A DNA stretch of 64,000 bases from Macrostomum lignano (Eukaryota). Positions within the stretch are counted from its first letter, which is position 1; the number at the start of each line of letters is the position of its first letter. Below, piece after piece: positions 1 to 63,701 of the stretch. A model generated the notes under the pieces. The model ran no database searches. It worked only from the letters and a program-made list of their open reading frames with translations, and had not been told where the DNA came from. The stretch lies in NCBI GenBank assembly GCA_002269645.1, contig NIVC01000393.1:124001-188000 (forward strand). The letters are read 5' to 3'. The translations under genes and the position numbers were made by a program.

Positions 1-3000
1 GAACCTGTAGGTTTGCCGATATGTTGAGTAAATAACTTTCTTGCCAGTTATAGTGAACCTGTAGGTTTGCCGACACGTTGAGTAAATAACTTTCTTGCCA
101 GTTATAGTGAGCCTGTAGGTTTGCCGATATGCTGAGTAAATAACTTTCTTGCCAGTTATAGTGAGCCTGTAGGTTTGCCGACACGTTGAGTAAATAACTT
201 TCTTGCCAGTTATAGTGAGCCTGTAGGTTTGCCGACACGTTGAGTAAATAACTTGCCAGTTATAGTGAACCAAGAAGAGAAATGAGTAGGTTTGCCGATA
301 TGTTGAGTAAATAACTCTCTTGCCAGTTATAATGAGCCTGTAGGTTTGCCGATATGTTGAGTCAATAACTTTCTTGCCAGTTATAGTGAACCTGTAGGTT
401 TGCCGATATGTTGAGTAAATAACTCTCTTGCCAGTTATAGTGAGCCTGTAGGTTTGCCGATATGTTGAGTAAATAACTTTCTTGCCAGTTATAGTGAGCC
501 TGTAGGTTTGCCGATATGTTGAGTAAATAACTTTCTTGCCAGTTATAATGAGCCTGTAGGTTTGCCGATATGTTGAGTAAATAACTCTCTTGCCAGTTAT
601 AGTGAGCCTGTAAGTTTGCCGATATGCTGAGTAAATAACTTTCTTGCCAGTGATAGTGAGCCTGTAGGTTTGCCGATATGTTGAGTAAATAACTTTCTTG
701 CCAGTTATAGTGAGCCTGTAGGTTTGCCGATATGTTGAGTTAATAACTTTCTTGCCAGTTATAATGAGCCTGTAGGTTTGCCGATATGTTGAGTAAATAA
801 CTTTCTTGCCAGTTATAGTGAACCTGTAGGTTTGCCGATATGTTGAGTAAATAACTTTCTTGCCAGTTATAGTGAGCCTGTAGGTTTGCCGACACGTTGA
901 GTAAATAACTTGCCAGTTATAGTGAACCAAGAAGAGAAATGAGTAGGTTTGCCGATATGTTGAGTAAATAACTCTCTTGCCAGTTATAATGAGCCTGTAG
1001 GTTTGCCGATATGTTGAGTAAATAACTTTCTTGCCAGTTATAGTGAGCCTGTAGGTTTGCCGATATGTTGAGTAAATAACTTTCTTGCCAGTTATAGTGA
1101 GCCTGTAGGTTTGCCGATATGTTGAGTAAATAACTTTCTTGCCAGTTATAGTGAGCCTGTAGGTTTGCCGACACGTTGAGTAAATAACTTGCCAGTTATA
1201 GTGAACCAAGAAGAGAAATGAGTAGGTTTGCCGATATGTTGAGTAAATAACTCTCTTGCCAGTTATAATGAGCCTGTAGGTTTGCCGATATGTTGAGTAA
1301 ATAACTTTCTTGCCAGTTATAGTGAGCCTGTAGGTTTGCCGATATGTTGAGTAAATAACTCTCTTGCCAGTTATAATGAGCCTGTAGGTTTGCCGATATG
1401 TTGAGTAAATAACTTTTTTGCCAATTATAGTGAGCCTGTAGGTTTGCCGATATGTTGAGTAAATAACTCTCTTGCCAGTTATAGTGAGCCTGTAGGTTTG
1501 CCGATATGTTGAGTAAATAACTTTCTTGCCAGTTATAGTGAGCCTGTAGGTTTGCCGACACGTTGAGTAAATAACTTGCCAGTTATAGTGAACCAAGAAG
1601 AGAAATGAGTAGGTTTGCCGATATGTTGAGTAAATAACTCTCTTGCCAGTTATAATGAGCCTGTAGGTTTGCCGATATGTTGAGTAAATAACTTTCTTGC
1701 CAGTTATAGTGAGCCTGTAGGTTTGCCGATATGTTGAGTAAATAACTCTCTTGCCAGTTATAGTGAGCCTGTAAGTTTGCCGATATGCTGAGTAAATAAC
1801 TTTCTTGCCAGTTATAGTGAGCCTGTAGGTTTGCCGATATGTTGAGTAAATAACTTTCTTGCCAGTTATAGTGAGCCTGTAGGTTTGCCGATATGTTGAG
1901 TAAATAACTTTCTTGCCAGTTATAATGAGCCTGTAGGTTTGCCGATATGTTGAGTAAATAACTTTCTTGCCAGTTATAGTGAACCTGTAGGTTTGCCGAT
2001 ATGTTGAGTAAATAACTTTCTTGCCAGTTATAGTGAGCCTGTAGGTTTGCCGACACGTTGAGTAAATAACTTGCCAGTTATAGTGAACCAAGAAGAGAAA
2101 TGAGTAGGTTTGCCGATATGTTGAGTAAATAACTCTCTTGCCAGTTATAATGAGCCTGTAGGTTTGCCGATATGTTGAGTAAATAACTTTCTTGCCAGTT
2201 ATAGTGAGCCTGTAGGTTTGCCGATATGTTGAGTAAATAACTTTCTTGCCAGTTATAGTGAGCCTGTAGGTTTGCCGATATGTTGAGTAAATAACTTTCT
2301 TGCCAGTTATAGTGAGCCTGTAGGTTTGCCGACACGTTGAGTAAATAACTTGCCAGTTATAGTGAACCAAGAAGAGAAATGAGTAGGTTTGCCGATATGT
2401 TGAGTAAATAACTCTCTTGCCAGTTATAATGAGCCTGTAGGTTTGCCGATATGTTGAGTAAATAACTTTCTTGCCAGTTATAGTGAGCCTGTAGGTTTGC
2501 CGATATGTTGAGTAAATAACTTTCTTGCCAGTTATAGTGAGCCTGTAGGTTTGCCGATGTGTTGAGTAAATAACTCTCTTGCCAGTTATAGTGAGCCTGT
2601 AGGTTTGCCGACACGTTGAGTAAATAACTTTCTTGCCAGTTATAGTGAACCAAGAAGAGAAATGAGTAGGTTTGCCGATATGTTGAGTAAATAACTCTCT
2701 TGCCAGTTATAATGAGCCTGTAGGTTTGCCGATATGTTGAGTAAATAACTTTCTTGCCAGTTATAGTGAGCCTGTAGGTTTGCCGATATGTTGAGTAAAT
2801 AACTCTCTTGCCAGTTATAGTGAGCCTGTAGGTTTGCCGACACGTTGAGTAAATAACTTTTTTGCCAATTATAGTGAGCCTGTAGGTTTGCCGATATGTT
2901 GAGTAAATAACTCTCTTGCCAGTTATAGTGACCCAGTAGGTTTGCCGATATGTTGAGCAAATAACTTGCCAGTTATAGTGAACCAAGAAGAGAAATGAGT

Positions 3001-3915
3001 AGGTTTGCCGATATGTTGAGTAAATAACTCTCTTGCCAGTTATAATGAGCCTGTAGGTTTGCCGATATGTTGAGTAAATAACTTTCTTGCCAGTTATAGT
3101 GAGCCTGTAGGTTTGCCGATATGTTGAGTAAATAACTTTCTTGCCAGTTATAGTGAGCCTGTAGGTTTGCCGATATGTTGAGTAAATAACTTTCTTGCCA
3201 GTTATAGTGAGCCTGTAGGTTTGCCGACACGTTGAGTAAATAACTTTCTTGCCAGTTATAGTGAGCCAGGTTTGCCGAAGAGAAATGAGTAGGTTTGCCG
3301 ATATGTTGAGTAAATAACTTGCCAGTTATAGTGAACCTGAGTAGGTTTGCCGATATGTTGAGTAAATAACTCTTCTTGCCAGTTATAGTGAGCCTGTAGG
3401 TTTGCCGATATGTTGAGTAAATAACTTTCTTGCCAGTTATAGTGAGCCTGTAGGTTTGCCGATATGTTGAGTAAATAACTTCTTGCCAGTTATAGTGAGC
3501 CTGTAGGTTTGCCGATGTGTGAGTAAATAACTCTCTTGCCAGTTATAGTGAGCCTGTAGGTTTGCCGACACGTTGAGTAAATAACTTCTTGCCAGTTATA
3601 ATGAACCTGAGTAGGTTTGCCGATATGTTGAGTAAATAACTCTCTTGCCAGTTATAATGAGCCTGTAGGTTTGCCGATATGTTGAGTAAATAACTTTCTT
3701 GCCAGTTATAGTGAGCCTGTAGGTTTGCCGATATGTTGAGTAAATAACTCTCTTGCCAGTTATAGTGAGCCTGTAGGTTTGCCGACACGTTGAGTAAATA
3801 ACTTTTTTGCCAATTATAGTGAGCCTGTAGGTTTGCCGATATGTTGAGTAAATAACTCTCTTGCCAGTTATAGTGACCCAGTAGGTTTGCCGATATGTTG
3901 AGCAAATAACTTCTC
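1..3915. repeat. 54-bp tandem satellite (~70 units) with recurring variant unit, runs off the window start
   Basis: Unit gaacctgtaggtttgccgatatgttgagtaaataactttcttgccagttatagt; variant containing aagaagagaaatgag recurs near 271, 929, 1208, 1595, 2090, 2369, 2650, 2985, 3277. Confidence 0.97.
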
Positions 3916-3994
3916 AGACTGGTTAATACTAAATATTAGACAGGTACCTCCTGATGTCGAAGAATTTCCAAAAACGCATCCGAATCTCTCACCA

Positions 3995-4210
3995 AAGCTC
4001 CCGGGTTCGAATCCCGGGTTTAAGGATCAGAAATTAGAGTGCAGACGCACTCTCCTGTCTAGGCGAGTTCTGTCGTCAACCCCTAAAAGCCGCTGCAATC
4101 TGTTAATTAACTAATGGCATTGAACAAGTCAGTGGGCAGCCCAGAGTCCTCAGCCTTGTCACGTTCGCGGGCACAAAAGCTACACAAATATGGATGCTTC
4201 ACTTTCTAAT
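3995..4210 (+). mobile_element. Possible 5'-truncated tRNA-derived SINE
   Basis: B-box GGTTCGAATCC near 4006; 3' end tatggatgcttcactttc resembles an RTE-type tail; no A-box or TSD seen. Confidence 0.3.
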
Positions 4211-5662: not shown

Positions 5663-6085
5663 ATGAATACTTGCTATGCTTCTACTACTACTGATACTGA
5701 TACTACTACTACTATTACAATTACTACTACTACTGATACTACTACTACTACTACTACTACTACTACCGATACTACTACTACTACTACTACCGATACTACT
5801 ACTACTACTACTGCTACTACTACTACTACTACTGCTACTACTGCTACTACTACTACTATTACAACAACTACTACTACTGCTACTACTACTACTATTACAA
5901 CAACTACTACTACTGCTACTACTACTACTATTACAACAACTACTACTACTGCTACTACTACTACTATTACAACTACTACTACTACTGCTACTACTACTAC
6001 TATTACAACTACTACTACTACTGATACTAGTACTACTACTACTGATACTATTACTATTACTACTACTACTACTAATACTCCTACC
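5663..6085. repeat. (ACT)n trinucleotide microsatellite
   Basis: Direct inspection; it generates the poly-T/V/L ORFs. Confidence 0.95.
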
Positions 6086-7096
6086 ATAAAGTAGACTTTT
6101 CCATTAAAATCAGCACCAACTCTAGAAATGGAGCACTGTGGACATAATAATTGCTTTAAAACTCTCTACTTGATTGTCTTTTTTAAACAGAGAGAGAAGA
6201 GCCTTGAACAACTTGGCTTGGCTTGCATTCTTGCAATTTGCGTGGTCGGTCTTTTCCTATTGAATGCATTGAGAGTGGCCTTCTAGGGAATATAAGATCT
6301 ATGCTACTAACACTATGAGTACTGAAAAATATACTACTTATGCTACTGTATACTAGATTACTACAGCACTATAAAGGAGAAAATCAGGGGTAAAGCAGAA
6401 TACCGCAGGTGAAGAGGAGACAATTATATTTATACAATTAGCAAATATGTATTCATGGCATCAGCGTTTTCTTGCACAGAAGTTTTTCAGTAAAATTGTT
6501 ACAAAATCGCGCCTAGTTTTAAGCAAGAATGTTAGAGAATTTGTAGAAGTACAAAAATAGAGAATAGAGACAAGCTACTTTGAGTAATAATAAATGAAAA
6601 CTTACTAATTAAAACAGGAAAATACAGCGGAAAAGTTGGAACGGAAATTACTAAATATATTTCAAAAGCTTTGGAATGAGCATTGAATTAAGAATATTTG
6701 TGCGATAAACTATTCACTGTCAATACACAGCGCATTGCAGAACCAGTCTGCCCCTGTAGTTCAAACAAATTTTTATCAAACTTTTTGTGACTACTTGTTA
6801 GTAGTATGGGCTTTTGCCCATTGCAGCATTATAAAAATAACTAGATGTACTTTTATTATTCGGGCAAATATCGAGTAACTACAAGTTGTTGTTAAATAAT
6901 AAAATACAAAAAAATGAAACAAAAAGAACAGCTAACAATTTTGCTAATGACTACTCGAACTGGTCGAGCAGTAGATAGTGGCGAAACTATGTAGGAAAAT
7001 AAAATAAAACTGCTAATATTGTTATACAAACATTCAATGTTCAAGTTATATCAAGGACGGAATAAAAATTTGCAAATTAGTGAGATGGTTATCAGA

Positions 7097-9542: not shown

Positions 9543-29981
<20,439 letters not shown>

Positions 29982-30339
29982 GATGGCTGCAGTAGTGATG
30001 GCAGTGATAACACAATTGGATTATTATTGAAATCTGTGCAATAATTGTGCATAATTAGCTGTTTAGAATCTATCAAGACCCTATTTAGAACATTGTTCAA
30101 TAGACATTCTAGAGGTGTGATTAATATTTGGTCAGAGAAAGTCTTCTTGATTATAAGTGTTTAGTATTTTAGCGACTGTGATTAGTTTAATGATGACTGC
30201 AATATCCAGAATTTTTTCTGGCTTTTAAGCAATAGTCATTAGTCTTTATTACAATTATCATTACTCATTGTACTTGCATTTTTATGACTCCACACTTTTA
30301 GAGACACTGTGGCCATGTCTACTATTGTATAGGTTTGTT

Positions 30340-34697: not shown

Positions 34698-37600
34698 TGT
34701 TGCTCGGTCCCGGCGTTAGACCGCTCAAGGCGCGGCTGAGCTGAGCTACGCTCGCTAATAAAAACGATTGTTTATCGACGAGATATAACAACTGGCGACG
34801 AGGATGGCCAGCACCGTTTTTGCCAGCAAGCGAATCGCCGGCAGTTCTATGGAATCGATGGCTCGATGCCTTCGATATATACTGCCAAGCCGTGCATATC
34901 TGGACTCCAAGGCCGAAAGGAGAAGCTCAGAGTCAGGAGGCTATGCGCCTGCAAACGGTTTGCCGAAACATGCTGCTTCGCCTGCTCGGTTTCGAAGGGC
35001 AGCGGATAGCTACGGCTAGAAATGCAATTGCCGATGAGCAGAACTTTTGGCAAACTCGTGATCTGCTGACGACTGTATTCGGCGACCGGCCGAATGTGAT
35101 GCTGGCGCGCCACAGATTCCGGGAAAGACATCAGCTACCTGAAGAGGACCCAGCCACTTTGTCGCAGCACTGCGAGAGCTGTCAGCCACCTGCAACTACG
35201 GTGTCCTGGTGGACGAAATGATTCGTGACCAGCTGGCCCAGAGGACGAGCAGCACCCGGATACGCGAGCTGACGGAGGACGCGGCTACGCTGACTCTGGA
35301 CCGTGCCATCACGATTGCGACGACCATCGAGGACGCAGCAGCAGGAAGCAAGGCGATGGCAGCGACAAGCTCGTCAGGAACATTCCAGGCCGTTCTAGCG
35401 CGGCGCTCTGGCCAGCAAGAGACCCCAGCGCCAAGCCGGAGGGTCCTGTCTGCGATGCGGCCGTAGCCATGACGCGAAAGCGAAATGTCCCGCCCATGGC
35501 AAGAAGTGCAACAACTGCGGCAAGCTCAGTCACTTCAGTCGATGCTGCCGCAGCAAGGCTCTGCAGGTCAGCACAGAGGACACGGTTACGATTTACTCGG
35601 TGCACGGCATTGGCGAGATCAGAGTCGCGTTACAACTGGGTGGCAGTCGGACGATTGTCAGCCTGATGGTCGACTGCGGGGCCAAGGTGTCCCTGCTCTG
35701 CAGCGAAGCCACAGCAAGGACTCTAGACAACTTGGAGCTAAGACCTTCAGCAATGCAGCTAAAGGCTTACGGCGGAAAGCAGATCTCACTGGCTTGGATT
35801 GCAAAGGTTGCCGTCAAGCACGAGAGTCGGGAGCTGCATCACGATTTCTATATCTCGAGGTCGAGCGAAAACATCATTGGCCGTGATCTAATGAAAAAGC
35901 TGGGATTCCGGGTACAACTGCAGCCTCCTGAGGTTGAGAATAGTATCGCCAGTGTAGACATAGCGGAGGAGTTCACAGCGGTTTTCAGTGGCCTAATCGG
36001 ACTCTGCAAAGGGGCGGTGCACAAGCCGAGAGTAAATGCAGATGTGAATTCCACTCGCAAAGCAACAGAAAGTAGGCAATGAACTTGAATCTGCGAATCT
36101 GCACATTCGAATCTGCATCGACGTGCGAGAGCCGAATAAGTCGCTTGTAATCGATCGACATCCGATGCCTCAGCTGGACGAGATTTCGGCAAAGATCAAG
36201 GCAGCAAGTGGCCGCGTATTTTCAAAGATTGGTCTCAAAGCTGGCTACATGCAGATGCAGTTGCATGAGGCATCGCGTGACTTGACAGCATTCATCACGC
36301 ACCAGGGGTTGTATCGGTATTGCAGAGTGCTGTTCGGCTTAGCGTCAGCGCCAGCAGCGTTCCAAAGGATGTTGGACGACTTAGTAGCCGGACTTCACGG
36401 GGTCGAACATATTCTGGACGATTTCATTGTTTTTGGAGCAAACATGACTGAACATGATTCAAGACTGCGAGCGCTGTTAGGGCGTATGAACGACGCTGGC
36501 CTAACGACCAATAAGGACAAATGCCTGCTGCGCAAGACGGAGGTAGAATTTTTCGGCTTAATCTTCTCAGCCGACGGTATGCGACCTTCAGAGTCCCAGA
36601 CCAAGGCATTCAGCCAGTTGCGCTCACCGTCGAACTGTAAGGAGCTGCAGGCGTTCCTAGGAGCTGCAAACTACTTGATGCGCTTCGTGCCCAATTTTGC
36701 TGAAGTCACAGTGCCTCCTGAGGGCCCTACTGAAGGGGGATGCGGAGTTCGAGTGGTCGACGGACTGCGAAAGAGCGTTCCAAGAGCTAAAAGCAGCAAT
36801 CTGTAATCCACCGATCCTGGCGCACTTTGACCCAGAGGCCGAGACGATTGTCACCAGCGACGCCAGTGCGGAGTCTCTCAGTGCACAGCTATCCCAGGTC
36901 CAAGACGGCGTCGAGCGTCCAATCGCCTTTGTCGCCCGAGCCTTGACCGACACCGAGAAGCGATACGCTGCAAATGAGCGGGAGGCATTGGCCAGTCTGT
37001 GGGCCATGGAGAAGTGGCACTACTACCTATATGGGCGTCACTTTGAGCTGCGAACAGACCATCAAGCGCTACGTCAACTACTGTTGGGACCTAGCAGCAC
37101 GGGACATTGGCCGCTGCGCATCTACCGCTGGTGCGACAGGTTTCAACAGTACGATTTCCACGTAAAATATCTGCCAGGCAATCGGAGCTTCGTGGCCGAC
37201 ATGTTGTCAAGGTGGAGCTGTGGGTCGGACATGAATATCGTACAGCTACCGGACACTGTAATGCCTCGAGTCCGAGTAGTAACACCTACCCAGCTAGCGA
37301 CAGCCACGGCCGATGACACGGTTCTGCGCGAGGTGATTCAGCGAGTGACTAGCGGCAACTGGGGCTCAACGAAGGATACAGAATTGCACTCGTTCTTCAA
37401 AGTCAGAGAGTACCTCAGTGTTTGGCAGGATGGCGCCTGCCTGGCTTTCCAAGAGCGAGCAGTCATTCCACATCAGCTGCGGCGTAACCTACTGGAATCG
37501 GCGCACACCGGACATCCGGGTGTGGTTCGCACTAAGCAGCAGCTCCGCGAGTTTGCTTGGTGGCCAAAAATGGACTGCCATTTGTCGTTTGTCAGAGACT

Positions 37601-38850
37601 GCAGTGCCTGCGAGACCGCAGAAAAGAATATCAAATTGCGACCGGCTCCTCTGCAGCCTCTGCGGTGGCCAGATAGGCCGTGGACACAGATCGCCATCGA
37701 CATCGTGGGTGAGCTACAGGCAGCACCAGCATCGTCACGATTCCGTCTGGTCATTACGGATCTGCATAGTAAGTGGCCGGAAGTATTTGCAACGTCAAAT
37801 ATAACCACAGAGACGATCTGCAAAGTGTTACGCAGCCTGTTCGCACGCTGGGGCCTCTGCGAGACGGTGCTCACGGACAACGGACCGCAGTTAGGCAATG
37901 CTCTCACGGGGTTCCTGCGGGAGCGCGGCATCCTGCATCAGAAGACCAGCCCGTACCGTCCGAGCACGAACGATCAGACGGAGAGGCTCAACCGGACTCT
38001 GGTAGACAGCATACGAGCGGCCAGGGCAGAGAATGTCTCAATGCAAGACGCGTTGCTGCAATTCCTTGAGACCTACCACAGTACGCCGCACGCGCTGACT
38101 GGCAAGAGTCCAGCGGAGCTGATGCTAGGAAGACGTTGGCGCACTGCACTGTCTTTACTGGCTCCGTCTAAGGACACCACGGCGACACAACCAGATATCG
38201 CCCAGCGAATTTGGAAGAGACAGCAGCGAACGGCAGCTTATACCCACCGGCGGCTGGGGGGGGGGGCGCGACCACCAACATTGTGCGCCGGTGACTGGGT
38301 TCGAGTGCGTCGTCCAGTGCGAAATGGGAAGCTGGGGACGTGGCTCTCTGGACTACTAAAGATCGTCAAGACAACGAACGCCGTGTTAGACTAACGGACG
38401 GCAGCACCTGGAGTCAGCAGGCGCTTGTACCAACGTCTTTGCGGCCGAATTCTGAGCCACCAGGGCCAAACGAGCTTGACCCCCTCGTGGACATTCCAAG
38501 GCAACAATCTGCACAATGCGGCGGAGAGACAAATGTTCAAATACCAGGACCAGCTTCGGGACCCGCGACTCCACCGCTGCGACGTTCGAACCGTCAGCGT
38601 CGACTGGTGCAACGTTACGGCTGGTGAACCTTTCGGAGAGGGGGAAGATGTTGTGTCCTGATTTAATATTTAAGTACTTTTGTTTCTGAGATAATATATA
38701 AACTACAAACTTATGTCCATGAACCGAACCTTGTTGCAATAATTTGCAATAAAGACAAGGACTCGGTCCCGGCGTTAGACCGCTCAAGACGCGGCTGAGC
38801 TGAGCTACGCTCCCTAATAAAAAACGATTGTTCATCGATGAGATATAACA
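34698..38850 (+). mobile_element. Degenerate Ty3/Gypsy LTR retrotransposon
   Basis: Right LTR 38649-38850 (TG...CA) after PPT ggagagggggaaga; partial left LTR 34703-34790 then PBS-like tggcgacgagg; gag zinc knuckle, protease VDCGAKVS, RT ILDDF, RNase H TSDAS, integrase HHCC and D-D-E; several frameshifts; no TSD found. Confidence 0.93.
34804..38394 (+). pseudogene. Gypsy gag-pol, frameshifted (longest open piece 36697-38394, RNase H plus integrase)
   Basis: ORF track fragments 34804, 35209, 35600, 36123, 36697. Confidence 0.9.
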
Positions 38851-42059: not shown

Positions 42060-42770
42060 GACACCAAGGGCACCAAGGGCACGGATGTGCGCTCGAGAAC
42101 GAACAGCCAGGAGAACATTGAGGCTCGGCGAGAGTACGTGCTGAATTTGGACCCTGCAGTACGGTTGGTGTTTCTCGATGAAACGGGATTCAATTTGTGA
42201 ACCAGACGATCACAGGGTCGCAGCCTGAAAGGTGAAGAGGTCAGGCGAAGGGTCACAACGCAGCGCGGACCAAATGTGACTGTTTGCATGGCGATAGTCG
42301 CTGAGTTTGGCCTCGTGCACTCGTCGGTGTTCCGAGGAGGCCAGACGAACGCCAGATTTCAGATCTTCATCGACGAACTGAGCGAGGAATGCCACCGTCT
42401 TGATGCTGCGGCATGGTGGATTGTCGTGATGGACGGTCCGCATTTCCATCGAGCAGCGCGCATTCCGCAACATCTGCAGCACGCTGTGTCCATCCGCATT
42501 CTTCCCGGATATTCACCTTTTCTGAACCCTTCGGAATTCGCCAACAGTTGTCTCAAGGCCAAGATCAAAAGCAGACTGGCGCAGCCTGACATCGTTGAGG
42601 AAGAGGCAGTTGCCCCAGAAGGCGTGAACCAGGAAGAGTGGCGTTACATGCTGCTGGAGAGAGTGGCGCGTGAGTCATTGCCTGAAGCCGTGACTCCGGA
42701 CAAGGCAGCTGCGTGGGAATTGCGCTGCTTCCGTCAGCTTGGACGCTGCCTTGCTGGGCAGGAGCTCTGA
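42060..42770 (+). pseudogene. IS630/Tc1-like transposase catalytic half
   Basis: VFLDETGFNL*..., VVMDG...ILPGYSPFLNPSE (33 residues between D2 and E); internal TGA near 42198. Confidence 0.85.
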
Positions 42771-43074
42771 ACCTATGCTGCTGGACTGCTGTGTTTCCAT
42801 CATTTTTCTGACTGTGTTGCCATTTCTGTTGTCAATTTCTCGTTTCTATTGTTAAAATTTCATTCAAATAAACGCGCACACTGCTCCCGTTGCCATTTTG
42901 ATTGTCCAATTCTCATTTCGATCGTCAAAAAGTCTATGGCCTAAGCCGCAGCTGCTGCGAAGCTGAGCTGAGCTGCTGCATGCAGATCTACGGCTGTTTT
43001 CATTTTGATTGTCCATTTTCTCATATTGATTGTCAAAACCAATAATATGCCAGAGTGACTTTCCTGAAGCCAAG

Positions 43075-43270
43075 TCTTTGCGTCCTCTGCAGAAGCTTAG
43101 CGTCCTCTGCAGAAGCTTAGCGTCCTCTGCAGAAGCTTTGCGTCCTCTGCAGAAGCTTAGCGTCCTCTGCAGAAGCTTAGCGCCCTCTGCAGAAGCTTAG
43201 CGTCCTCTGCAGAAGCTTAGCGCCCTCTGCAGAAGCTTTGCGTCCTCTGCAGAAGCTTAGCGTCCTCTGC
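43075..43270. repeat. 20-bp minisatellite (~10 copies)
   Basis: Unit gcgtcctctgcagaagctta. Confidence 0.92.
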
Positions 43271-43620
43271 ATGTCAAATAAATGCGCCGTTTTTTGCTGC
43301 AAGTCTGGCAGCGAGTCGGCAACGGCACGGTCAGCGAGGATTTCATTCCACAAGTTTCCGAATCGAGACGATCTGCTCGAAAAATGGTTAAAGAGCATTT
43401 CCCGAGAAGCAACTTTCAAGCCATCGAAGTACAATCGAATTTGCTCCCTTCACTTCACGGAATCAGATTTTATTACTGAGAATCAGGACAGCGATGCATA
43501 TCGGAAAAAAACAACACGAAGAAGGTGCCAATCTTGTAAAAAGAAGATTAAGAGAAGATGCAGTTCCCACCCAATACAGCACGATAAAGATGTCCAAGAT
43601 GCTAACAAAGCAGATCAAAA
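43271..43620 (+). pseudogene. THAP (C2CH) domain fragment, frameshifted
   Basis: MSNKCAVFCC...FHKFP...W...RICSLHF, with RRLREDAVPT in the shifted frame. Confidence 0.85.
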
Positions 43621-44651
43621 AGCCGAGACAAACAAAATTAAAGAGAAATTTGACGAAACTGCAAAAGTCACAGGTGGCCGGGAAGCATTGATTTTGATGC
43701 GTGGTGCCCCCTTACAATTTTGCGTAACTGCCCTGGCGGCAAAAGTGAGATTCATTAGTTTTATTGCTGTATTCTTTCTTTGCTTGCCAGACATTTCTGA
43801 ATTGTGCTTACAGTTTTCGTTTCTTTTTGTTTGCTCTTTGTTACAGTTTCTCAATACAGTTTATAAGCCATGATCTATTCTTGCTTTGCTTGCTTGACAT
43901 ACTCCTGTGCCTACTCGTGTTACATCTAGAAATTGATATAATTTCAACGTCTTCTTATGTCGCGTTTCATTTCTATGCTATTATATTATATCTGCTATTA
44001 TATTTGCCTTTCATGTACTTTGCTAGCAGTCTGAGCGAAATGTTTTATTTAATGTTTGTGGACTCTATTATACTATGAACGTCGGTCATTATGTTTATAT
44101 TCTGTGCTCTCCGGAGGGGGGCTGATTGGCTTAGTACTTTTGCATAAACAATTGTTGTAAGTTCGTGGTACCTGCAGGGGATCAACTTGTCCACAACCCC
44201 CGAAGGGGGTCTAACTGGCTAGTGATAACCTAAACCACAGATACTAAATATCCTTGATGGTTTACTCAGCACTATCTTTATGTGTCAGTTTTGATGTAGA
44301 GACTATTAGTAGTAATATACGGTACAAAATTGCCAGCAAACCGTTCTCATAATTCAAAGAGAATTAACCCTTTATCAGTTTGAAATGACTCGTTTTCCCT
44401 TCATTATCGCTCGTCTTCACTTCGCTCAACTCGCTTCGCTCATCCTCGCTTCATTTCGGTCAATCTCCTCATTTCACACTTACAACGATTAATTCTCTTT
44501 GAATTATGAGAATTCGCTCTCGTCGTTCGCTTCGGTTTGCTGGCAATTTTGTACCGCACCCAACACTTCTAACACTTCCAATTCTCTATAACCCCTCGCA
44601 CGCGCCGCAGGCGCTAAGGGTCTTTTTCTGTTACTAAAAATAGAACAAAAA

Positions 44652-45050
44652 ATGACACACGTTACACATATGCAAAATCTGAACGAATTGCAGGTAGGAG
44701 ACCCAATTGAATACCGAGGTGAGGGGCTTTTTGATGTGGTTGGTACAGCAGCGAATTTCGTTAAAGACAATATGGGTCTTATAGGCCAAGCAGGCTCCGC
44801 AGCAGGTTCTATAACAAATGCTGTAAAAGGAGGAATTGAAGCAGCTAGAGCGGCAGAAGAACTAAAGAAATTGAGAGATTTTAACGACACCCTCTCACAA
44901 ATAAATGCAATAAAAGATTTAAAGCTGGCACAAGCCGCACAACCAACAGAAACCCCCCACGAAAAGCACACCAATAAGTAATAAAGATATTCAAGATTTT
45001 AATAAAATGTTAACCACAATTAAAGGCGGAAAAGGATTAAAAAAATTTTA
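44652..45050 (+). CDS. Small Maverick core-like protein; annotated ORF ends 44981, but a 1-nt shift in the C6 run near 44955 extends it to ...IKGGKGLKKF*
   Basis: YRGEGLFD motif; alternate frame PISNKDIQDFNKMLTTIKGGKGLKKF. Confidence 0.6.
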
Positions 45051-45061
45051 ATAATATAAAA

Positions 45062-46048
45062 ATGGACACGGATAATGAACGGCTATATTTTATAGGAGAA
45101 ATTGTAGACACTTTAGATTTGGATGATAACAAACATAGCCACACAATGTTAAAAAGATTGGATCGTTTAGGTAAAAAACTTGACTACGATATCGATACAT
45201 TTAAACTTGCTGCAAAATATGCACAAGAAGGAAGGCCAATATCCTTTAAGAATCATGGTAGAAATTATAGGTTGACAGACTCTGATGTAAAATTTTTATT
45301 GGAGACTCACACTAAAAAGGACGGCGGATTGCTACCCATTTTACCAATTCTTTTAGGCCTCGGAGCAGCCGGAGCAGCCGGTTTAGCTGGCAAAAGAATT
45401 CATGATAACCGAAAACAGTTAGCAGAATTAAAAGCAAAACAAGGGGGGATATTGCCACTAGCAACTTTATTACCAATAATTTTTGCAGGAATAGGAGCAG
45501 CTGGTGGAATAGCAGGTGGCGCAGCGGGAATCACAAAAGCAGTAAATGATAAAAAAGCTGGGGATGAAAAAGCTAAACGAGATGCAGAATTTCAAAGACA
45601 GCAAATAACACAGGACGCACAATTCAAACAGAAACTTATTGATACCATTAATAGTAGTTCAGCAACAGCAGAGCAAAAAAGAAATGCAGAAGCTAGGTTA
45701 GCAGCCGGAAAAGGTTTACTCTTGCAAGGAACAAATCACGGGAATGGTTTAATATTAAAAGGAACAACCCAAGGAAGTGGAGTTGTAGCAGATAAACTAC
45801 ATGAATTTGGTCAAACTTTAGAAAAAACGGGAGAGAAAGCTAAAGGATTTTTTGACAATATTGGAGCTAATTTTAGACCAGCAGTTCAGAAGATTTTTAA
45901 TAAATTAGGAAAAGATTTTAACATCATTGAAAAACATGATGGAAGCGGATTATATCTCGAAATGCGACCAAAAGCAGGTTCAGGAATTTTCTTAAATTCA
46001 AACGTTATGGGCAATGGATTACTGTTACCAAAAGCAGATCTCGAATAG
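45062..46048 (+). CDS. Adenovirus pX-like / adintovirus core precursor protein, 328 aa
   Basis: Two motifs GGLLPILPILLGLGAAG and GGILPLATLLPIIFAGIGAAGGIAG (adenovirus pX GGILPLLIPLIAAAIGA); six GxG(L/V/I) repeats. Confidence 0.72.
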   Translation: MDTDNERLYFIGEIVDTLDLDDNKHSHTMLKRLDRLGKKLDYDIDTFKLAAKYAQEGRPISFKNHGRNYRLTDSDVKFLLETHTKKDGGLLPILPILLGLGAAGAAGLAGKRIHDNRKQLAELKAKQGGILPLATLLPIIFAGIGAAGGIAGGAAGITKAVNDKKAGDEKAKRDAEFQRQQITQDAQFKQKLIDTINSSSATAEQKRNAEARLAAGKGLLLQGTNHGNGLILKGTTQGSGVVADKLHEFGQTLEKTGEKAKGFFDNIGANFRPAVQKIFNKLGKDFNIIEKHDGSGLYLEMRPKAGSGIFLNSNVMGNGLLLPKADLE

Positions 46049-46132
46049 GCTCCTGGGGGGAGGGTCTGGACACCAAAAACACAAAATTAAAAAATCAATA
46101 ATTCAAACATTATATAAATTTTATTCTATAAA

Positions 46133-46288
46133 ATGGAACAAAGAATGACCCCAGATCAGATTCGACAACTTCTTGCAAATGAGCGCCAACAGTTCAATCG
46201 CATGCGCATGGTGGCAATGCGCAGCCAAGCTCCTAAGTCTAAGACCGATAAGGAGAAGGTTCAGAGAGCAGACGGAGGTGGGCGGTAA
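46133..46288 (+). CDS. Short hypothetical ORF, 51 aa (MEQRMTPDQIRQLL...)
   Basis: tataaaATG context as in the neighbouring genes; no recognisable homology. Confidence 0.35.
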   Translation: MEQRMTPDQIRQLLANERQQFNRMRMVAMRSQAPKSKTDKEKVQRADGGGR

Positions 46289-46332
46289 TTTATCCGCTTA
46301 AGGTGTGCTCCAGCCTATTTCGAAAGATTTAG

Positions 46333-47490
46333 GGCAAACTACCCGGCACTCGCTTAGATTTGAGATTAAATCCTGATGACACACCAAAAGCTGATTCAAT
46401 TCCCATTAACGGCATTGATTGGTTAGCATATTATCATGACTTAGCATACAGAGATGCTGATAAGAACACACCCGAGGAAGCATTAAGATTAAAACATGAA
46501 GCCGATAGAAAGATGATTCAAGGATTAGATAACTTGCAAGGATTATCGGTAAGCCAAAGATTAACTCGGTGGATGGTTAAAAAGATTCTGCAATCTAAAG
46601 TTAAATTTGGTTTAGGAATTAATTACAACCAACATGGAAATAATTGTGTTGAGTGTTTATTATTAAGTGGTAGTGGGTTAAGTTCTGATGAGGCAAAAGT
46701 TCTTCATAAAGAATATCGAAAACCTAAATTTTATAGAAAAATCATGAACTTCAAAAAGAACGAAATTTGGTATGCTGATTTAATGTCATTGCCGAGCGAC
46801 AGAGGATATAAATATATTTTAACCATATTAGATGGTTTTACTCGATACGCGTGGGCAGTTCCTTTAAAATCCAAAAAAGGAGAGGAGGTTGCTGATGCTT
46901 TTAGAAATCTTGGAGAAAAAAGCGAACGGTTGTGTGTTGATGAAGGAAAAGAATTTTACAATCCTCATATGTATAAATTATATCATTTTGAAAAAGGACA
47001 AGAAAGGAAAAAAGACGCGAATGGGGAGTATATTAATAAAATTTATTCTATTTATGGAGAAAGTAAAAACGCATTAATAGAAAGATTTAATCGAACTTTG
47101 GGGAAGAAATTGTGGTTTCAGTTTAGTCTTAATGGAAACCAAAAGTGGGTAAAAATATTACCAGACGTCGTGAAAGATTATAATAATTCATATCATTCAG
47201 CAATAAAGATGACTCCTCAACAAGCTTATAACAATCCTGAAAACGTTAAAGTTACTTTTGGAGAATTTGAAAAAAATAAAAAGAAACCTTTTAAGGTTGG
47301 TGATTCTGTTTATATATATAAATGGAAAGATAAGTTTGAAAAGGGAAGAAAAGGATATTGGAAGATAAGTGAGAAATTTACCATCAGTAAGGTTTTAAAT
47401 ACAAATCCTACAACCTATATAATTGCTGATAAGGATGGTGAAGAAATATTGGGTTCGTTTTATGAGAATCAGATAATATCTGCGAACTAA
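46333..47490 (+). CDS. Parvovirus-type PLA2 fused to Maverick rve integrase; true 5' end frameshifted or missing
   Basis: PGTRLDLRL...INGIDWLAYYHDLAY (PLA2 HD motif), then YADL..., ILDGFTRYAW, VDEGKEF, IERFNRTL (D-D-E) and C-terminal FKVGD...W...F.I...TY...GSFYE. Confidence 0.9.
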   Translation, partial: GKLPGTRLDLRLNPDDTPKADSIPINGIDWLAYYHDLAYRDADKNTPEEALRLKHEADRKMIQGLDNLQGLSVSQRLTRWMVKKILQSKVKFGLGINYNQHGNNCVECLLLSGSGLSSDEAKVLHKEYRKPKFYRKIMNFKKNEIWYADLMSLPSDRGYKYILTILDGFTRYAWAVPLKSKKGEEVADAFRNLGEKSERLCVDEGKEFYNPHMYKLYHFEKGQERKKDANGEYINKIYSIYGESKNALIERFNRTLGKKLWFQFSLNGNQKWVKILPDVVKDYNNSYHSAIKMTPQQAYNNPENVKVTFGEFEKNKKKPFKVGDSVYIYKWKDKFEKGRKGYWKISEKFTISKVLNTNPTTYIIADKDGEEILGSFYENQIISAN

Positions 47491-47500
47491 GTTCGAACAA

Positions 47501-47725
47501 TTACTTAAGGCAACAGGGTAGTAAATTTTTTATAACAAACAAAAACAATATTATTACTATTATTGTTACTAATATTATTATTGACATTTGTTCAACAGTG
47601 ATTAGACTTAAATTTTCATTAAGTTCATTAATCGGCACATTTTCGATGTAGGAGTAGTTTACCTTCATTTTTTTATATATATTTTTCACAATAAATGTCG
47701 TTTCTGTTATAGAATAATAGTTCAT
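47501..47725 (-). CDS. Hypothetical 74-aa membrane protein inside the Maverick
   Basis: C-terminal hydrophobic stretch IIILVTIIVIILFLFVI followed by KNLLPCC; aaaaaATG context. Confidence 0.55.
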   Translation of the reverse strand: MNYYSITETTFIVKNIYKKMKVNYSYIENVPINELNENLSLITVEQMSIIILVTIIVIILFLFVIKNLLPCCLK

Positions 47726-47742
47726 TTTTTAAATATTTTTTT

Positions 47743-48057
47743 TCACATAAAAATTTCAATTTCATTCTCAGAATCACTAGTTTCATATGAGCTATTTGTT
47801 GAGTTGGAATCATCTGAACGAACCTCCCAATCATCCGAATTTAAATAATCTCCAAGTTGAAATATTAACTCACCCTCTTGTTCTAAATCATACATCTCAT
47901 CCAACTCTAATGGATAAAGTTTTAGGTCATGCTTGTCGTCATACTTTAAATAAACTTCATCAATTATTCCATTCAAAATATGTTGTTTTATTATCTCTGC
48001 ATTTTTAGCAACAGTCTCAAAAGTATCACTAACAGAAAAGGTGTAAACTCGGGTCAT
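47743..48057 (-). CDS. Hypothetical acidic 104-aa protein inside the Maverick
   Basis: The A of ATG is the last base of the right TIR; acidic composition. Confidence 0.6.
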   Translation of the reverse strand: MTRVYTFSVSDTFETVAKNAEIIKQHILNGIIDEVYLKYDDKHDLKLYPLELDEMYDLEQEGELIFQLGDYLNSDDWEVRSDDSNSTNSSYETSDSENEIEIFM

Positions 48058-48719
48058 TTTAGTAACAGAAAAAGACCCTTAGCGCCTGCGGCGCGTGCGA
48101 GGGGTTATAGAGAATTGGAAGTGTTAGAAGTGTTGGGTGCGGTACAAAATTGCCAGCAAACCGAAGCGAACGACGAGAGCGAATTCTCATAATTCAAAGA
48201 GAATTAATCGTTGTAAGTGTGAAATGAGGAGATTGACCGAAATGAAGCGAGGATGAGCGAAGCGAGTTGAGCGAAGTGAAGACGAGCGATAATGAAGGGA
48301 AAACGAGTCATTTCAAACTGATAAAGGGTTAATTCTCTTTGAATTATGAGAACGGTTTGCTGGCAATTTTGTACCGTATATTACTACTACTATTGATTGA
48401 CTGAGATATCTATGGTATAAGCTTTTACGATATACGTATGCTATCGTTCAGTGCGCGGCATCGCTTTTATTTCAATTAAATATATAGACACAATCGAGCG
48501 CCTCTTAAGCGCCTCCAACTCGGCCTTCGCTAACATGGCGTCCCATAGCAGCGATTAACTGCCCAACGCTTTCGTGACAGCTACTTTGCGACCATGATGG
48601 CGCCAACTAAAGCCCCACAGCAGTCACCAACCAAGGCACCACCATCGGCACAACAAAAGCTACTCCAACGGAGAGGCTAACACCCGAGTTGAATCAGCGC
48701 GGGGAATTTCACTTCCGGG

Positions 48720-49019: not shown

Positions 49020-53948
<4,929 letters not shown>

Positions 53949-56883: not shown

Positions 56884-57410
56884 GATGGAACTAAAATTAG
56901 CTTCTTCTTGTAAAAGAGGCAAGCGGTGAATGGAAGCAAGATGTGAACCTGTAACGCACAATGAATTTTGCTAGCAATGTTTGTGACAATTACATTTGAT
57001 GGTTTTTTTTACAACTTTTAAGTATACGTTAATTACGAGTACATATGTTATACTCAATCGTTCTGGCAAAAGTTTGGCCATAGACTAGCCTCACATATCC
57101 TCATTTCGGCCCGCGATGTGGCCTGTGAAATCTAGACACAATAGGCCGTATGAATAAACTGAGCAAATGCTCAAACTCAAGCAAATGCTCAGGTCAATAA
57201 GAATAAGTTGAGCTTTTGCTCATGAGCAAATGCTCATGAGTAAATGCTCGTGAGCATTTGCTCCGACTCATGAGAAAATTCTCAGCTGCAGAGCAATTAC
57301 TCCAGTCAGTAAGAATAAAAACATGGCCATAGACAAAAGATCGGAGCAATTGCTCACAAAATGTTGAGACAGCTACCTAGCTGACTCAACTGGCAAGCAA
57401 CTGCAGTTGA

Positions 57411-58464
57411 ATGGCGGAATTTATGCCTGAAATCGCTCCTGCAAGGCGCAAGCTCTACCTTGAAAGGCTTTCGTCTGATGTCCTTCGAGATTGCGAGTAC
57501 CAGCGGCTGTTCAGATTCTCCCGCGACAGCGTTGACCTGCTCACGGCAAGCTTCCTTGACAACAGTCAGGAATCACGAGGGGGTGCTCTGTCACCTAAGG
57601 TGCGCATGGAAGTTGCTCTACGATACCTGGCGAATCCTGGCTTTCAAACCGGCATCGCAAACGAGTTCAACATCCATCAGACAACCGTATCGAAAACTGC
57701 TTGGCATGTTGTGCAACGAATTTGTGCTCAAACGATGGATCAAATGGCCGACACAATCTGAGCACCAGCTGCATGAAGCCAAGCAGAACTGGTTCCAAAA
57801 GTTCCGGTACCCGTCAGCAATCGGGGCAATCGATTGCACACATGTACGGATCGAGAAGCCTGGAGGTGCGGTGGGGAACGAGTATGTCAACCGCAAGGGC
57901 TTTGCATCCATCAATGTTCAAGCCACTTGCGACGAGAGTTTCAAATTCACGAGCGTAGATGCATCGTGGCCTGGCTCGGTGCACGACAACCGGATCTTCA
58001 AGAATTCTGAAATCTACGGCGATCTCTCCAACCGCCAGGGCGTCGTGTTGCTAGGAGACGAGGGCTACGGCATAGCCCCTTTCATTTTGAAGCCGTTCAA
58101 GGAGCCGAACCAGCCGCAGGAGATTCTGTTCAATCGGGTGTACTCAAACGCTAGAGTAGTTATCAAAAATGCCTTCGGTCAGTTGAAGCGGCGCTTCCCC
58201 ATCCTCAAATACATGATCAGAGTGAGGCTAGAGCGCGTCCCAACCTACATCATTGCTTGCTGTGTTCTGCACAATGTGGCGAGAGAGCTGAACGACAGAG
58301 CAGTCGATGATGAGGCCATCGAGGAGGAGATGACACATGTGGCAGACGTGCCCCACACGCTCGATGCAGGCGACGCGCAGAGGCGCGCTGCGGGCACGCA
58401 GCGTCGATTGGAAATCGCTGACATCATTTTTCGCCGTCGGCATAGCAACCACCACGCGCCATGA
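57411..58464 (+). pseudogene. Harbinger DDE transposase, frameshift near 57730, catalytic E appears as K
   Basis: GAIDCTHV, GSVHDNRIF, GDEGY, VIKNAFGQLKRRF. Confidence 0.9.
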
Positions 58465-62797: not shown

Positions 62798-63621
62798 TCA
62801 GGACAGGCATAGCGGCGCGGTGGACGATCCGACCTGCTCCACGGTCGCTCGACCGTTCGAGTCCAAGTTCGCTCCACTTGTCTTCACGATGTTCTTCGCC
62901 TCTGCCGCCACAAAGCTGCCACCGCCGCCGCCGCCGCCACCCTTCTTGCCTCCACCGCCGCCGCCTCCAGAGTAGCCGCCGCCTCCACCGCCGCCAGATT
63001 TCTTTTTGCCGCCTCCGCCTCCACCGCCGCCGTAGCCGCCAAACGAGAAGTCTTCGTCACCGTTGCCCCCGCTCCAACCTTTGCCAAAACTCTCTCCGCC
63101 GAAACCACTATCTTTACCGGACCCGTCTTGGCCTGCCGACTTCCAGCCGGCGCCGGCACCGCCGTTTTCTTTTCCGGAAGTGCTCGCATGGCCGCCGTGG
63201 CCGCCTGCGCCGCCGGCACCGGCATCATCGCCGCCGCCGCTGGTCCCGGCCTCGGCGCTGCTCCCGTCAATTCCATTGCAGACGTCTTTGGATTCGCTGC
63301 CGCCACCTCCGCCCCCGCCGGCCGCCACCAGAGGCAGCGCCGTCGATGTGTCGATGCCGTTGACATAGATGAAGGTGCCGCCACCGCCACCAGCTGAGTC
63401 ATCGTCCTCTGGTGCGTCGCCGCCTGCTTTGCCAACGATAATCGCCAGGGTGATGCCTGCGGTCAGCTTGAAGTGTCCGGATACGTGGGCGCCCCTACCG
63501 CCAGGTTTGCCGCCGTCGACATTGCCGCCTCGGGCGCCCCAGGCGCTGATCTTGTAGCAGCCGGTTGTGACGATGGCGTGGGTCAAGATAGTGCCAACCT
63601 GATTGCTTCCAATAAGCGGGG
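62798..63621 (-). CDS. Exon encoding an ALK/LTK-type glycine-rich extracellular domain
   Basis: TGCYKISAWGARGG...GGRGAHVSGHFKLTAGITLAIIVGKAG...AGGGGGTFIY...PLVAAGGGGG...FGGYGGGGG...GGGGSF; phase-1 CAG acceptor at 63622-63623. Confidence 0.82.
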
Positions 63622-63701
63622 CTGCAATGAATTCGTTAAGTACATTTTTTTCAAAAAGCATATTACGAGGTTTTGATTGAAACAAATAGATGAAGACTCA
63701 C

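Follow-up and report, generated by a model that had tools for sequence, protein, structure and literature searches.

The 64,000-nucleotide stretch of Macrostomum lignano DNA analysed here (contig NIVC01000393.1, positions 124,001 to 188,000 of the forward strand; hereafter the window) contains a short Maverick element with intact ends, and the question it raises is whether this is a mobile unit in its own right or what is left of a larger one. The element proper occupies 4,081 bp (44308-48388). A preliminary description, which gave the exact ends (AGTAGT/ACTACT), the 332-bp terminal inverted repeats (TIRs) and the 6-bp target-site duplication (TSD; ACTATT) at both ends, had drawn it as 44302-48394, a span that also counts the two TSDs; the TIRs are identical at every one of the 332 positions. 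With a probability of roughly 0.8 this is a single copy of a resident 16-18-kb Maverick that has undergone an internal deletion, likely closed by end joining, and that likely cannot produce an integrase or PLA2 of its own, since exon 1 of a PLA2-integrase gene was lost along with the first half of a group I intron for which splicing is predicted. By itself the 4-kb element is ordinary decay; the intron remnant, which the preliminary description missed, is the notable feature of the locus.

Origin of the 4-kb element

The window copy consists of the left 1,893 and the right 2,182 bp of a Maverick family (family 1) of the same genome. Element positions 1-1893 and 1900-4081 matched G000:C3469:55700-57579 and 69480-71660 at 95.6%, which supplies the full-length parent with shared ends that the preliminary description had proposed to look for. 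The C3469 element is 15,961 bp long and has its own TSD (ATCATC); the 11,900 bp of it that are absent from the window copy extend from about codon 23 of pPolB to the middle of the intron, inside which the right breakpoint falls. Among the best 40 of 457 candidates for the whole element, the 39 scored places other than the window matched at 92-96% and all began at query base 1900, while the left arm (best 40 of 179 candidates) gave 39 other places at 90-97%. Further full-size copies with TSDs of their own were found on C3109 (17,496 bp), C734 (17,950 bp) and C3225 (17,884 bp); for C506 and C2506 no matching TSD was found at the end positions chosen.

The parent family belongs to the Mavericks/Polintons by its pPolB, packaging ATPase and double-jelly-roll major capsid protein (MCP). 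In the C3469 copy, pPolB is encoded by an open reading frame (ORF) of 1,156 amino acids (PF03175, E=8e-20), and the ATPase, which is A32-like, by a match to PF04665 (E=6e-7). Foldseek matched the low-confidence model (pLDDT 50) of a 490-aa protein to double-jelly-roll MCPs at E=2e-12, the matched folds being MCPs of iridovirus, Sputnik and mavirus. Neither Pfam nor PHROG returned a match for a cysteine protease or minor capsid protein in this copy; the ORFs that we take to encode them were placed by position and size, with what is presumably the H-D-Q-C motif in a 155-aa ORF.

The two arms meet at breakpoints that share no repeat or microhomology. No second junction was found in the 764-Mb assembly when two mismatches or, in a separate search, any filler of 0-30 nt were allowed. 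The terminus itself was found at 14 places, spread over 10 contigs, and none of the nine contigs other than that of the window carries a 4-kb element (eight extend past the breakpoints; C271 was judged by its 31.9-kb span only). The expectation of several 4.08-kb copies with distinct TSDs was thus disappointed. A second deletion with intact ends was identified at C3209:45130-56430 (G000); it is 11,301 bp long, has the TSD AACGCA and other breakpoints, and lacks pPolB and the core-like gene. A break in Maverick DNA, before or after integration, followed by end-joining repair with a loss of 11.9 kb would produce the structure seen in the window. The 6-bp filler may be a templated insertion from such joining; insertions of this sort are left by polymerase-theta-type joining.

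Few changes are private to the window copy. The integrase exon shows one synonymous and one non-synonymous change in 382 codons compared with 27 other distinct copies, and the core-like gene two synonymous and one non-synonymous change in 328 codons compared with 15 copies; divergence from any single relative is 3-10%. These counts point to a recent insertion that came from a pool of recombining copies, and because private codon changes are so few, the open frames of the mini element reflect youth and are no sign of selection. Many family-1 copies match the TIRs of the window copy over the inner 60-85 bp only and differ in the outer part, which suggests swapped end modules.

With the deletion went pPolB beyond about 23 codons, the ATPase, the putative protease, the major and the putative minor capsid genes, and exon 1 of the PLA2-integrase; because of these losses the window copy, which is left without replication and capsid genes, is likely dead. 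The earlier view of a recent, defective Maverick derivative lacking polymerase and capsid is borne out. Internally deleted Polintons were described in Repbase-era papers. Like such non-autonomous forms, the window copy has kept its ends and lost internal genes; it differs from them in being a single copy with no amplified family.

Several points weigh against a dead, one-off deletion. The copy search covered the best candidates only, so that mini elements with other breakpoints may exist; perfect TIRs are compatible with mobilisation in trans; the integrase core could be translated from an internal ATG at 46513; and the junction and the host flanks are known from the assembly alone. The first two bear on the satellite proposed in the preliminary description, a helper-dependent or defective-interfering genome in which the deletion would have arisen in a replicating linear genome that a full-length helper copies and packages and that is now spreading. 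Its perfect TIRs and TSD, its few private changes and the many full-length relatives able to supply functions in trans would suit such a genome, and the integration of a molecule deleted beforehand looks the same as a later chromosomal deletion. Against spread stand the junction found once in 764 Mb, the lack of another 4-kb element among the 14 termini of the same type, the lack of divergence of its own and the unrelated breakpoints of the second deletion copy. What was found is a deletion that arose once within a resident family, and the satellite is improbable.

Still less probable is an assembly artefact, in which a chimeric or collapsed long read would have dropped the middle of a full-length copy. 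The single occurrence, seen in the assembly only, and the frameshift in ORF1, a sign of base errors or decay, are what it would predict; the lack of repeat or microhomology at the breakpoints, a patterned filler present on neither parental side and the occurrence of naturally deleted copies in the same family are not. The other proposal of the preliminary description, an integrase-only cut-and-paste transposon, would make its integrase from ATG 46513, and the 325-aa frame that begins there does retain the D, D and E motifs. This ATG lacks the AAAATG context that precedes 11 of the 12 genes of the full-length copy, however, the upstream pPolB start yields a 51-aa peptide ending at 46288, and the element is a single copy whose one junction marks a one-off deletion of a resident family; such a transposon is very hard to credit. 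A single-copy deletion of a family-1 Maverick is therefore preferred.

The PLA2-integrase gene and its group I intron

The 135 nt of intron retained in the window lack P1, P2, P5abc, the 5' strands of P3-P5 and the 5' splice site, and the intron was described from its full-length relatives. In family 1, RF00028 (cut-off 50 bits) scored 59.1 bits in the C3469 copy and 45.1 bits in a second copy; there was no Rfam match in the locus holding the window copy, nor in a third copy. The intron is 299-333 nt long in all 29 nearest copies and 337 nt in C3209. It lies in phase 0 between the N-F-T/A-G and P-G-T codons, which encode the PLA2 calcium loop, and in none of the 29 nearest copies is there an in-frame ATG directly before PLA2.

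The borders are fixed by an intron-less allele and by database homologues. The allele, on C3967, is an unbroken PLA2-integrase ORF of 424 aa that lacks exactly the intron block and scores above the Pfam cut-off for PLA2. Searched as a pattern, the uninterrupted site turned up at two places in the genome, one of them C3967, with one match in the reversed control. Of 120 database homologues, 58 have P-G-T early, and 49 of these 58 read xxxG-PGT without interruption.

A hand-set structure of 58 pairs was applied to 28 distinct rows (identical rows dropped; four family-2 loci that failed the anchor left out), in which 99.5% of cells were paired, compared with 36-52% in slid controls. At the 5' splice site, P1 has its U-G pair in 17/17 rows, and the G-binding G-C pair of P7 was unchanged in 28/28. 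P2, P2.1 and a P5abc extension with an A-rich bulge are present and paired; the intron is a candidate member of subgroup IC1. Two-sided changes were seen in nine pairs, three of them within P7; eight of the nine merely separate the two families from each other, and 62 of 500 shuffles give as many such pairs, which counts against reading much into them, and the covariation appears supportive without being strong alone. Judged by descent and structure, this is almost certainly a genuine group I intron.

A short spliceosomal intron and a programmed frameshift before PLA2 were considered and dropped, the Rfam match and the intron-less allele explaining the region. A 5' splice site at the end of a 223-aa gene, which would have made an HNH-like ORF intronic, was ruled out, as exon 1 comes after the HNH-like ORF.

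Distribution of the intron

A pattern for the intron 3' end in both families gave 119 matches in the assembly and none in the control. Among the 100 of these 119 ends that were listed, counted by eye and possibly including assembly duplicates, all 22 of family 2 end in G, and the 78 of family 1 comprise 59 ending in A and 19 in G. When RF00028 was searched genome-wide, all 28 scored places lay above the cut-off (72.7-91 bits), and the 20 that were inspected all belong to a second Maverick family, where they precede PLA2-integrase exon 2. This family 2 is about 18 kb long, with TIRs of about 580 bp, another gene order, a different pPolB and a helicase-like ORF, and its integrase is about 60% identical to that of the window. 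Its intron occupies the same site, has a canonical P7 and ends in G, and the P2.1 loop holds an endonuclease-like ORF.

Beyond this assembly, the database PLA2-integrases P0129, P0003 and P0046 open with translated intron core motifs right before P-G-T. The representative of the P0129 cluster is 47% identical to the window protein, and the cluster also has an uninterrupted member (P0130). Altogether 23 of 158 proteins lacked the G before the motif or had core-like motifs, several of them for other reasons. The same intron is likely present in Maverick families of other assemblies, as far as the translated proteins indicate. No relatives were found in a viral contig collection, and a metagenome scan returned two related loci, the better of which is intron-less. 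At C1549 (G000; L103, about 5950-6280) the sequence after exon 1 is neither intron start nor exon 2 and is possibly another insertion or deletion at the intron site.

Predicted splicing and proposed homing

Although the intron interrupts nearly every integrase gene in both families, there are copies whose TIRs are near-identical and whose TSDs are fresh. Exon 2 shows no private stop codon in any of the 28 distinct rows, and exon 1 is open in most copies. From these features the intron probably splices in vivo, with greater confidence for the G-ending forms; it would be removed by the two usual transesterifications, perhaps with host assistance. One DNA run and three of 12 presumed-RNA runs, mapped to a full-length copy, showed no joint skipping the intron; these runs being fragmented contigs of which the DNA run also missed the known intron-less allele, the result weighs neither for nor against splicing. 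The junction of the window copy did not appear among the loose ends listed.

Doubt centres on the last base. Of the family-1 ends listed, 59/78, that of the window included, carry A in place of the usual group I G, and these copies are counted as a variant that acts like a group I intron, not as canonical members. They might instead splice at an in-frame G nine bases upstream, adding three residues to the PLA2 loop, or stay unspliced with the integrase made by internal initiation. The Rfam alignment does stop at the upstream G, and the invariant G-binding pair of P7 also speaks for this account. The upstream G lies inside the P9 stem, however, where a two-sided change is seen among family-1 copies; the P9.0 pair indicates the downstream base; none of the 58 homologues has such an insertion behind N-F-T-G; and in the part of PMC6545197 available, the coral ND5-717 intron, which lacks a terminal G, yields exactly ligated exons in vivo. 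Use of the upstream G, or no splicing at all, is accordingly a doubtful account.

Endonuclease-like ORFs lie next to the intron in some copies and within it in others. The family-2 ORF, of 228 aa, sits in the P2.1 loop and reads on into the core; it scored 25.2 bits with RE_Eco47II (cut-off 25.9), and its Atlas neighbours are in the restriction-enzyme clan. In family 1 the slot upstream of exon 1, read in 39 rows, holds an HNH/endonuclease-VII-like ORF in 32, a restriction-like ORF in six and an acidic 153-aa ORF in one. The restriction-like ORF is 61% identical to the intronic one of family 2 and stands just upstream of exon 1, and all six of its rows bear the intron. The HNH-like ORF matched PHROG endonuclease VII (E=1e-10) and HNH (E=1e-6); because the intron-less C3967 still carries it, it is disfavoured as the homing enzyme for this site. 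The intron may have spread between co-resident Mavericks by homing through the predicted PD-(D/E)XK-like endonuclease, whose ORF neighbours the intron in some copies of family 1 and lies within it in family 2. By analogy, this placement matches the collaborative-homing route to mobile introns.

Taken as a whole, the proposal of a working mobile group I intron in the PLA2-integrase of animal Mavericks, splicing from viral mRNA despite a family that mostly ends in A, homing between co-resident elements with an endonuclease beside and inside it, and filling the same site in distant families of other assemblies, is given slightly better than even odds.

Comparison with known systems

In the parts of PMC8502044 and PMC6431247 consulted, Mavericks/Polintons (adintoviruses) resemble the parent family in TIRs, 6-bp TSD, rve integrase, pPolB, A32-like ATPase, double-jelly-roll MCP, PLA2 and a pX-like protein. 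In adintoviruses PLA2 is joined to pX (PLA2X), whereas here it is fused to the integrase and split by a group I intron; the consulted part of PMC8502044 mentions introns once, in another context.

The nearest parallels to the intron are the group I introns of polinton-like viruses (PLVs) in the protists Rhodomonas, Paulinella and Desmodesmus, which also match RF00028, are 309-376 bp long and interrupt a protein-coding gene in a PLV that is integrated (PMC12220804, in part; RF00028 introns of PLVs are reported there from protists only, with further hosts possible in tables S11-S12). The present case differs in its animal host, in the PLA2-integrase gene, in borders set by an intron-less allele, in the many A ends and in the endonuclease-like ORF alongside. 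The hexacoral mitochondrial ND5-717 intron likewise lacks a terminal G, by the portion of PMC6545197 cited above, but is mitochondrial and fixed, whereas here the intron is nuclear-integrated, viral and A/G polymorphic within one genome. The collaborative-homing model, as set out in the accessible part of PMC3984707, is matched by the related restriction-like ORFs, upstream of exon 1 in family 1 and intronic in family 2; the setting here is a eukaryotic virus in an animal nucleus, and cleavage and the direction of movement are predictions only.

Reviews confine nuclear group I introns to the rRNA genes of microbial eukaryotes (PMC3679873, in part), and a 2025 database lists animal group I introns only from placozoans, corals and sponges, mostly mitochondrial (PMC11835236, in part). 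In the sections consulted of PMC8502044, PMC11296320, PMC10748475, PMC3671162, PMC3014272, PMC6431247 and bioRxiv 10.64898/2026.10.13.758929, no group I intron in an animal Maverick is described; subscription journals and Repbase lay outside the search, and prior mention there is possible. Within the literature searched, the group I intron in animal Mavericks, the A/G polymorphism of its terminal base and the endonuclease in two positions would be new.

About 120 copies of the intron thus stand in a protein-coding viral gene integrated in animal chromosomes. If it is spliced, a ribozyme would gate the production of integrase and PLA2 in an animal cell. Because natural alleles ending in A and in G share one scaffold, the choice of 3' splice site is open to direct test, and the endonuclease found beside or inside the intron makes the collaborative-homing route testable in a eukaryotic virus.

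Genes of the 4-kb copy

Coordinates of the features are collected in Table 1. Six ATG ORFs are present, the number of ORFs given in the preliminary description (109, 328, 51 and 325 aa on the plus strand; 74 and 104 aa on the minus strand). The counterpart of ORF1 is 132-136 aa long in 11 of the 14 other copies that were read, and decay or a base error may explain the loss of frame in the window copy. The product of the 328-aa ORF is likely a virion core or membrane-active protein, judging by its sequence; pX-like domains occur in adintoviruses according to the part of PMC8502044 seen. The core-like protein of the preliminary description is thus kept as an ORF with a pX-like match under the cut-off.

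The 51-aa ORF is a junction product of about the first 23 pPolB codons, the filler and intron sequence. In exon 2 the first in-frame ATG is that at 46513, the one start from which an integrase could come. The rve integrase of the window copy, with exon 1 and half the intron gone, scored 31.6 bits (Pfam cut-off 32.6), and PLA2 was matched only in the stop-to-stop frame (E=0.026). The integrase named in the preliminary description persists as a core with D, D and E motifs, although exon 1 and half of the intron are lost. The PLA2, which the element had been said to keep, is no longer in working form: the start codon and N-terminal exon were deleted, and the catalytic YYHD lies upstream of ATG 46513. 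The 104-aa ORF had no protein family match. In C3469:55700-71660 (G000), 11 of the 12 genes begin in an AT-rich AAAATG context; such a context recalls poxvirus-type late promoters and is also a plain AT-rich initiation context.

Table 1. Positions of the features of the 4-kb copy in the window, and of related loci elsewhere in the assembly
Feature	Position	Strand	Remarks
Left TSD, ACTATT	44302..44307	.	
Left TIR, 332 bp	44308..44639	+	Internal palindromes with 24- and 29-nt arms
ORF1, 109 aa	44652..44981	+	98% identity to 132-aa ORF of full-length copy through residue 102, then frame lost
328-aa ORF	45062..46048	+	Weak adenovirus pX-like stretch; PF05829 (Adeno_PX) E=1.4e-4, 22.1 bits, cut-off 25
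pPolB stub	46133..46200	+	Start codon and about 23 codons; truncated by the deletion
Filler CATGCG, 6 bp	46201..46206	.	On neither parental side; forms direct repeat and palindrome with the joined ends
Group I intron, 3' part, 135 nt	46207..46341	+	3' strands of P5 and P4, P6, P7, 3' strand of P3, P8, P9, P9.0; last base A
Exon 2 of PLA2-integrase fusion gene	46342..47490	+	PLA2 from P-G-T onward, followed by the rve integrase (D, D, E motifs); frame open
74-aa ORF	47501..47725	-	Hydrophobic C-terminus; also open in 5/6 relatives read
104-aa acidic ORF	47743..48057	-	Conserved in full-length copies
Right TIR, 332 bp	48057..48388	-	Same sequence as left
Right TSD, ACTATT	48389..48394	.
Example ORFs of the slot upstream of PLA2 exon 1	L002:628-1227, L006:691-1206, L103:5235-5696		Three unrelated ORFs
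Second-family loci	G000:C67:348665-366913 (L122, L123), C1830, 18 more (L061-L065, L088-L102)		Inspected

Genomic neighbourhood

Folded as single-stranded DNA, the left TIR gave z = -10.2. An empty or homeologous site for the left flank was not found among the best 40 of 46 candidates. Just left of the insertion is a tandem array of 20-bp units (43036-43311), and further mobile DNA lies at 34745-38394, 42201-42770, 43181-43873, 49020-53944 and 57385-58464; the types present nearby are a Gypsy-like long terminal repeat (LTR) element, a DDE_3 transposase, a THAP domain, a non-LTR element with RNase H and a Harbinger-type DDE. Exons of a long coiled-coil host gene, perhaps CEP135/TSGA10-like, occupy about 12000-30020 on the minus strand. 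A glycine-rich ORF on the same strand (62798-63697) weakly matched the ALK/LTK glycine-rich domain (E=3e-4). Wnt genes, which mark the host as an animal, were found in the genome, one of them on the contig of the window.

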